A DNA stretch of 64,000 nucleotides, taken from Candidatus Aenigmatarchaeota archaeon. GTDB taxonomy: Archaea > Aenigmatarchaeota > Aenigmatarchaeia > QMZP01 > QMZT01. Shown in pieces: positions 51,988-52,068 of the stretch (within the stretch, counting starts at the first letter, position 1; every line of letters starts with the position of its first letter). Made by a program: the position numbers and the translations under genes. The DNA is taken from the NCBI GenBank assembly GCA_043808015.1, contig JAZDFI010000008.1, forward strand, positions 13,271 through 77,270, written 5' to 3'. The notes beneath the pieces are model-generated. The model had not been told where the DNA came from. It saw only the letters and a list, made by a program, of their open reading frames with translations, and searched no databases.

Positions 51988-52068
51988 TCCACGGTCTGGT
52001 CAAAGAGGTGCGGCATTAGCCCCCCGTGATGCAGGGTTAAAATTCGCGCCCTGATCAGAAGGCCATGG
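51988..52068 (+). ncRNA. Candidate small structured RNA, copy 2 of the 81-nt element, at the position where 5S rRNA is usually found
   Basis: Identical to 41785..41865. ATATAAAA lies about 30 nt upstream. Partial resemblance to the 5S helix III/loop C region (GGTCT...TTAGCCCCCC.G.GATGC), but no helix II partner and only 81 nt are shared. Confidence 0.4.

Follow-up and report, generated by a model that had tools for sequence, protein, structure and literature searches.

The 81-nt element downstream of the 23S rRNA gene probably encodes, rather than a 5S rRNA, a small structured RNA that has not been described before, about 85-95 nt long and specific to a subclade of Candidatus Aenigmarchaeota. 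The window, as we use the word, is the whole stretch of DNA that was analysed, 64,000 nucleotides in length. At the level of sequence comparison, the pattern of change among homologues establishes that the element is conserved as an RNA rather than being a DNA repeat, and covariation supports folding of that RNA into a three-way junction. No Rfam family matches the element at E<=10, and the RNA family is absent from Rfam 15. In the fold that we favor, a long terminal stem (P1, about 15 bp with an RAA bulge) would clamp both ends of the RNA, and two hairpins would make up the other arms of the junction: P2, which is short, G/C-paired and trailed by a conserved C-run, and P3, whose loop is AU-rich.

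Position, copies and relatives of the element

The features of the window that bear on the element, all on the forward strand where a strand is given, are these:

41783..41867 (+): second RNA copy, core 41785-41865; 94.3 bits against covariance model R1
46401-47839 (+): 16S rRNA gene, Rfam, archaeal
48693..51828 (+): 23S rRNA gene, RF02540, 2477 bits; LSU model matched from 1 to 2987
51851..51868 (+): T-rich stretch GTTTCCTCTATTTTTATT, putative rRNA operon terminator, just past the 23S processing stem
51954..51965 (+): TATA-like box CATATAAAAAAC, putative own promoter of the element, 22 nt before the RNA
51986..52070 (+): rRNA-linked RNA copy, core 51988-52068, with 2 bases per side lengthening the terminal stem
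52071..52079 (+): T-rich run TTTGTTTCT, putative archaeal oligo-T terminator, immediately 3' of the RNA
52101-52109: TATA-like box of the RNase P RNA gene, TTTTTAAAG
52130..52466 (+): RNase P RNA gene (context), RF00373, 56 bits, E 1e-13; gathering score 84

The 23S rRNA gene is bracketed by a 31-nt processing stem, with arms at 48674-48704 and 51817-51847. The element starts 140 nt past the 3' arm of this stem and 160 nt past the Rfam 23S end; the original prediction had it about 170 nt beyond the stem, which is right as to its lying 3' of the stem, the measured gap being slightly shorter. The duplication claimed for the element is exact: positions 41785-41865 and 51988-52068 agree at 81/81 bases with exact borders and unrelated flanks, and a match of 82 nt was seen in 0 of 100 shuffles. 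Different as they are, the flanks of the two window copies still form the two outermost P1 pairs, as U1-A82 and A0-U83 in the second copy and as U1-G82 and G0-C83 in the rRNA-linked copy. The latter scores 94.7 bits (E 4e-22) against R1.

Related loci were gathered through prolyl-tRNA synthetase homologues, through a pattern scan of genome contigs, which returned only two real matches along with seven chance bacterial ones, and through a scan of metagenomes for a variant of the sarcin-ricin loop. Using nhmmer and covariance model R1, which was built in this analysis, we found the element in L001/L008, L007, L017, L022, L026, L033, L035, L037, L043, L044, L045 and L048, with scores of 67-96 bits (E 1e-15 to 1e-22). 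These homologues, from metagenomes, span at least eight diverged lineages. They are always on the rRNA strand and lie about 150-190 nt past the 23S in all except L044, where the 23S and the element are separated by an inserted ORF that runs on the other strand. The element was not found in L047 (whose prolyl-tRNA synthetase is 65% identical) or in L031, in both of which the 23S 3' flank is covered, nor, with filters off, in the remaining related loci searched. No additional copy turned up in about 0.5 Mb of related loci, and scans of viral contigs gave either no match or chance matches that failed the covariance model.

The window, L007 and L037 share the gene order 23S-element-RNase P RNA, and an EamA gene stands between the element and the RNase P RNA in L001, L017, L033, L035 and L048. 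These EamA genes, together with the ORF inserted in L044, indicate that the element behaves as a unit of its own. With 56 bits the RNase P RNA gene of the window falls below the gathering score, so default annotation would miss it; its counterparts in the relatives score from 58 to 103 bits, and it is followed on its 3' side by a Sec61-beta gene and then by a gene of the metallo-beta-lactamase fold. Identity among aligned lineages exceeds 90% in the 23S 3' region and is about 65-97% in the element, and the spacer can be aligned only at a promoter-like motif and a T-run.

The T-rich stretch that follows the 23S processing stem is kept, as CTATTTTT, in four of the four aligned lineages. A motif like the TATA-like box of the window (GGAAATGTTTAAAAAAC, CTATAAAAAAC or ATGCTTAAAAAAC) occurs 20-35 nt before the first paired base in most rRNA-linked homologues, and it travels with the element in L044 and in the lineages bearing the EamA gene; in L037 the upstream flank is AT-rich and the motif ambiguous. 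On the downstream side, T-runs are present within about 30 nt in all homologues. From these motifs we infer the promoter, the terminator and the ends of the RNA: a BRE/TATA-type promoter of its own would drive the RNA after the rRNA operon has terminated, and the transcript would end at the oligo-T run.

The second copy sits in different surroundings, with a gene for an ArsR-type HTH protein and a 95-aa ORF on one side and an ATP-cone gene, about 55 nt downstream, on the other. By Pfam, the near neighbors are the ArsR-type HTH (41039-41383) and the ATP-cone (41921-42277), and those farther out are AA_permease (39386-40753) and CBS (42521-42976). In L048/L049 the gene order is Na/H exchanger-CBS-AA_permease with no intervening genes, and because CBS and permease adjoin there, we place the second copy in a lineage-specific insertion. 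The segment missing in L048/L049 is about 1.7 kb long (40754-42520) and holds the ArsR-type HTH gene, the 95-aa ORF, the RNA and the gene of the ATP-cone protein. A search for further homologues by way of the ATP-cone protein returned the source protein as its sole match. The BRE/TATA-like motif found upstream of the homologues was not found before the second copy. We also observed that the borders of the duplicate coincide exactly with the base of the terminal stem of the RNA.

Predicted fold of the RNA

The fold is based on a hand alignment of 11 distinct rows, which was built with the structure in mind and represents about nine independent lineages, all fairly closely related. Because these lineages are few and fairly close, the covariation statistics, which ignore phylogeny, are modest. 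The predicted parts of the rRNA-linked copy are as follows:

51987..52000 (+): 5' strand of P1 (P1a 51987-51996, P1b 51997-52000), pairing with 52054-52057 and 52061-52070
52002..52009 (+): J1/2, purine-rich junction strand, AAAGAGGU; family consensus ARWAGGRG
52010..52023 (+): P2, G/C hairpin, GCGGC AUUA GCCCC, with a tetraloop; 3-5 bp in the family
52024..52031 (+): J2/3, remainder of the conserved C-run and then a variable stretch (CCGUGAUG)
52032..52053 (+): P3 hairpin, CAGGGU ... GCCCUG, 6 bp; 10-nt AU-rich loop
52058..52060 (+): purine bulge of 3 nt between P1b and P1a; GAA in the window, AAA or AAG elsewhere

P1 comprises 15 bp, including the two flanking pairs, and at least six of these occur as more than one standard pair type. 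The RAA bulge on its 3' strand is present in 11 of 11 rows, and compensatory changes seen in L037, L044 and L035 fix its register. The three core pairs of P2 are 100% paired, and two of them swap between lineages, GC for CG and CG for UA. P3 is 98.5% paired in the hand alignment, with a loop that varies from 9 to 17 nt across the family. The C-run columns are invariant in alignment A1, and the GUGAUG part of the strand that follows is not conserved. The pair types seen at individual positions of the element include:

P1 4-79: AU, GC, GU
P1 7-76: GC, AU, GU
P1 8-75: UG, CG, UA
P1 9-74: CG, UA
P1 13-67: UA, CG
P2 26-33: GC, CG
P2 27-32: CG, UA
P3 49-62: GC, AU, GU
P3 50-61: UG, CG

On the covariance-model alignment, 86.9% of cells are paired, as against 23-49% when the partners are slid, and both sides have changed in eight pairs, as against zero to four with slid partners; the observed covariation score was reached by 0 of 500 shuffles. 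MAFFT and the first covariance-model alignment placed the 5' strand of P3 off by one column in four rows, so the statistics for P3 on the covariance-model alignment are underestimates, and the hand alignment was used for that helix. RNAalifold on the hand alignment yields the same junction, the alignment itself having been made to fit that junction. The frequent G-U pairs identify the functional strand as the rRNA strand, and the variation in length across the family (79-89 nt), which comes about through small indels, argues against a coding function.

In five of seven lineages the junction is also the fold of minimum free energy. In the window and L001 lineages the minimum-free-energy fold is instead rod-like, and this rod has some covariation of its own on the covariance-model alignment. 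Only its first helix, in which J1/2 (18-21) pairs with the 3' strand of P3 (62-65), holds across lineages, with 86% of cells paired and GC/AU covariation at 21-62, and it may represent an alternative conformer. In some lineages, then, a helix between J1/2 and the P3 3' strand could switch the conformation of the RNA.

The conserved parts that this fold leaves unpaired (RAA bulge, purine-rich J1/2, C-run and AU-rich loop) would offer surfaces for contact with proteins or other RNAs, and the RNA may act in trans as a stable and probably protein-bound molecule. J1/2 resembles a Shine-Dalgarno sequence, and the AU-rich loop reads like an Sm site (AAUUUUG) in L017, L048 and L037. What suggests a housekeeping role, in translation or in RNA processing, is the fixed place of the gene among those for rRNA and RNase P RNA.

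We compared the element with a number of known RNA classes. Archaeal C/D box sRNAs are likewise small archaeal RNA genes, and the window copy has GUGAUG and CUGA strings reminiscent of C and D boxes, but GUGAUG is confined to the lineages of the window, L001 and L035, with other sequence in its place in the rest (GGCAAAU, AAACAU, AAAAU), and the CUGA that would serve as D box is base-paired within P3 and P1. A K-turn was rejected on the spacing and position of the boxes and on a geometry incompatible with the covariation-supported fold. For an H/ACA sRNA, no homologue has an ACA 3' of P1, and a large symmetric internal loop is missing. For a tRNA or split tRNA, RF00005 does not match the element and ARAGORN finds none. 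A bulge-helix-bulge substrate would require a second bulge (2-4 nt, opposite strand) that appears only in the rod fold, where the helix is 5 bp and not 4 bp, and the strand that recalls a hammerhead-type core reads CUGAUCA, not CUGAUGA, and is base-paired. The element is not a fragment of RNase P RNA, given the end-to-end matches to the RNase P model, which reach 103 bits in L037, a lineage that keeps the element, nor a fragment of 23S, the LSU model having been matched along its whole 1-2987 span. As a small ORF it fails in that indels break every reading frame.

A more distant likeness is to RsaE/RoxS, the bacterial C-rich trans-acting sRNAs, which are also stand-alone and terminator-ended and have an invariant C-run beside a hairpin. 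A C-run of the RsaE/RoxS type could pair with G-rich Shine-Dalgarno regions. The resemblance is one of analogy only: these RNAs belong to another domain of life and have no similarity to the element in sequence or to the covariance model, and the C-run of the element may largely pair with its own G-rich J1/2.

5S rRNA and other readings of the element

The Rfam searches, at both gathering and relaxed thresholds, covered the window, the element by itself and 17 related loci. The original prediction that no recognisable 5S follows the 23S holds throughout the window, since the 5S model (RF00001) has no match at E<=10 anywhere in the 64 kb, and it also has no match at E<=1 in the related loci that hold homologues of the element. 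The 5S-binding proteins uL5 and uL18 were not found among the 10 window ORFs scanned. In L047 and L031, both of which lack the element, the 23S 3' flank likewise has no 5S and contains protein genes or AT-rich sequence instead, so that the notion of a usual 5S position after the 23S seems inapplicable to this group. 5S was probably unlinked from 23S already in the wider group. 5S genes have been detected in six of eight other Aenigmarchaeota MAGs (PMC8407114), and 5S is detectable in nearly all complete Nanobdellota genomes (2026 preprint, doi 10.64898/2026.05.13.725050). A canonical 5S is likely to be present elsewhere in the genomes of the clade, the window amounting to about 6% of a genome of about 1.1 Mb.

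We considered the possibility that the element is a drastically reduced 5S, or a functional substitute for it, which would occupy the slot downstream of the 23S and be built into the large subunit. The element does stand in the place that 5S takes in Euryarchaeota-type operons, it is a small and presumably stable RNA encoded beside the 23S 3' end, and it exists in two identical copies, as is often so for multicopy rRNA genes; canonical 5S was found neither in the 64-kb window nor in any of the clade loci searched; and, as in 5S, a three-way junction is closed by a helix of the 5' and 3' ends, a trait that is generic and not 5S-specific. The claimed likeness in sequence stands insofar as there is one local match to a 5S fragment, a 16-nt stretch (AGCCCCCC-GUGAUGC) resembling the helix II strand, which scores 20 where shuffles average 13.0 (sd 2.3); it is marginal, being reached by 23 of 2000 shuffles, and it is not kept in the homologues, where the GUGAUGC half is replaced (GGCAAAU, AAACAU, AAAAU, AAGAAU) and the score drops to 14-17. 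A dedicated search of 141 nt centred on the element, the relaxed-threshold check proposed for it, gave no match to RF00001 at E<=10. The element is about 35 nt too short, at about 85 nt (79-89 nt across the family) compared with about 120 nt, and both arms are half size; it has three helices and two loops, of 4 nt and 9-17 nt, where 5S has helices I-V and loops A-E, its junction strands are 8 nt each compared with 2-4 nt, and by eye no loop C or loop E motif is seen. It also appears to be a separate transcription unit, beyond a T-rich terminator and with a promoter of its own, and it is confined to one subclade. With 5S probably unlinked in the wider group in any case, as L047 and L031 suggest, with 5S detectable in most of the other Aenigmarchaeota MAGs just cited, and with so small a part of the genome in the window that absence there weighs little, we hold the reduced-5S reading to be highly improbable. 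The same small credence goes to its evolutionary form, in which a subclade of Aenigmarchaeota would have lost canonical 5S and an RNA junction of about 85 nt would replace it in the central protuberance; if so, we know of no earlier example of a minimal 5S in a ribosome that is free-standing and cellular, as opposed to organellar. The evidence favors the other alternative offered at the outset, that the resemblance is due to chance and the true 5S lies elsewhere, the latter part being likely and no firmer than that.

Position could also be explained if the element were no separate gene at all and acted in cis within the rRNA primary transcript, as a 3' external spacer with a part in termination or processing. 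Its near-constant distance of about 150-190 nt past the 23S on the same strand and its strong terminal stem would both fit such a role. Yet the 23S stem is separated from the element by the conserved T-rich terminator-like run and the conserved BRE/TATA-like motif, the promoter motif stayed with the element in L044 when an ORF came to separate it from the 23S, and an identical second copy is found 10 kb away, outside any rRNA context; we regard a cis-acting spacer as unlikely. The second copy in turn raises the prospect of a leader or riboswitch for the downstream gene, given that the ATP-cone gene follows so closely and that two mutually exclusive helices use strand 62-65. In its P1-P2-P3 junction, its length and its conserved junction strands, the element recalls the purine-type riboswitch aptamers (about 70-90 nt), but it does not lie in a constant 5'-UTR: what lies downstream differs from locus to locus (RNase P RNA, a gene for an EamA transporter, the ATP-cone gene), T-runs follow the element at every locus as a putative terminator of its own, and the RNase P RNA gene comes with a separate TATA-like box. 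Without loop-loop complementarity, without a J3/1 and without an Rfam riboswitch match, it departs from those aptamers in structure as well, and a riboswitch seems to us very unlikely.

Two identical copies with sharp borders, ends that form imperfect inverted repeats, and the location of one copy inside a lineage-specific insertion are features that a miniature mobile element, or a DNA-level repeat with terminal inverted repeats, would be expected to show. Such an element should not, however, be limited to two copies in 64 kb with none further in the related loci, nor hold one syntenic position across diverged genomes; no target-site duplication was seen, and it is absent from the viral contigs. 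The compensatory substitutions act at the level of RNA, many of the G-U pairs being A-C mismatches on the opposite strand. The mobile-element reading is largely refuted and in our estimate extremely improbable. A small RNA gene with a putative promoter and terminator of its own remains the reading that we prefer for the element.

The rRNA locus and the place of the RNA in the clade

Several features of the rRNA locus were observed along the way. The sarcin-ricin loop of the window (51562-51575) reads AGUACGAAAGGAAC, with a GAAA tetraloop, and not the near-universal AGUACGAGAGGAAC; L001, L007 and L017 have this variant in common, and it was what served as the clade-specific anchor for the metagenome search. 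Among the contigs of the metagenome collection, many of 3.0-3.1 kb have the 3' end of the 23S fused to its 5' end across the processing stem (for example GACAGATCTTTGTCAAAAAAGGATCTGCTACGTT), with the junction about 270-290 nt past the sarcin-ricin loop (L021, L023, L024, L029, L030, L032, L036, L039, L040 and L041, and also L027 and L038). These appear to be assembled circular pre-23S rRNA intermediates, with metatranscriptomes as their probable source.

About 144 nt (47809-47952) interrupt the 16S rRNA, with AAGUCGUAA before and CAAGGUAACC after them, and are flanked by an inverted repeat, GTGACGAGATG at 47810-47820 and CATCTCGTCAC at 47934-47944. The archaeal SSU match of Rfam ends at 47839, and a separate match at 47957-47981 corresponds to the terminal helix; the interruption probably represents a small intron, or an insertion, close to the 3' end. 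Rfam identifies two tRNA-like genes, at 48086-48184 and 54658-54766, the one in the spacer scoring only 25 bits, and with lengths of 99-109 nt they presumably bear introns. ARAGORN finds no tRNA in the 64-kb window. A free-standing ORF of 294 aa with a LAGLIDADG_3 domain lies at 20538-21422 on the minus strand, beside a weak match to a fragment of the tmRNA model (20380-20431).

In the relatives the rRNA genes are swollen, with 16S of up to 3.1 kb and 23S of up to 5.2 kb or more (L014/L015, 6993-9229; L048, 6614-9724; L046, 1-5221; L047, 932-5383). LAGLIDADG ORFs are found inside the rRNA genes of L015, L016, L046 and L049, and in L014/L015 there are protein genes between the 16S and the 23S.

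For annotation, it is reasonable to take the missing 5S after the 23S as most likely ordinary for this group, in which 5S would be unlinked, and a 5S label for the element should be avoided. Were a complete genome of the clade found to lack canonical 5S, the finding would be far more important.

DPANN archaea have tiny genomes with little spare DNA, and we know of almost nothing on their non-coding RNAs. A structurally selected small RNA with an apparent promoter of its own, kept in an island with the genes for rRNA and RNase P RNA, probably carries out some basic cellular task. The covariance model offers a tool for surveying Aenigmarchaeota genomes for this RNA, and the predicted transcript is a target to look for in metatranscriptomes.
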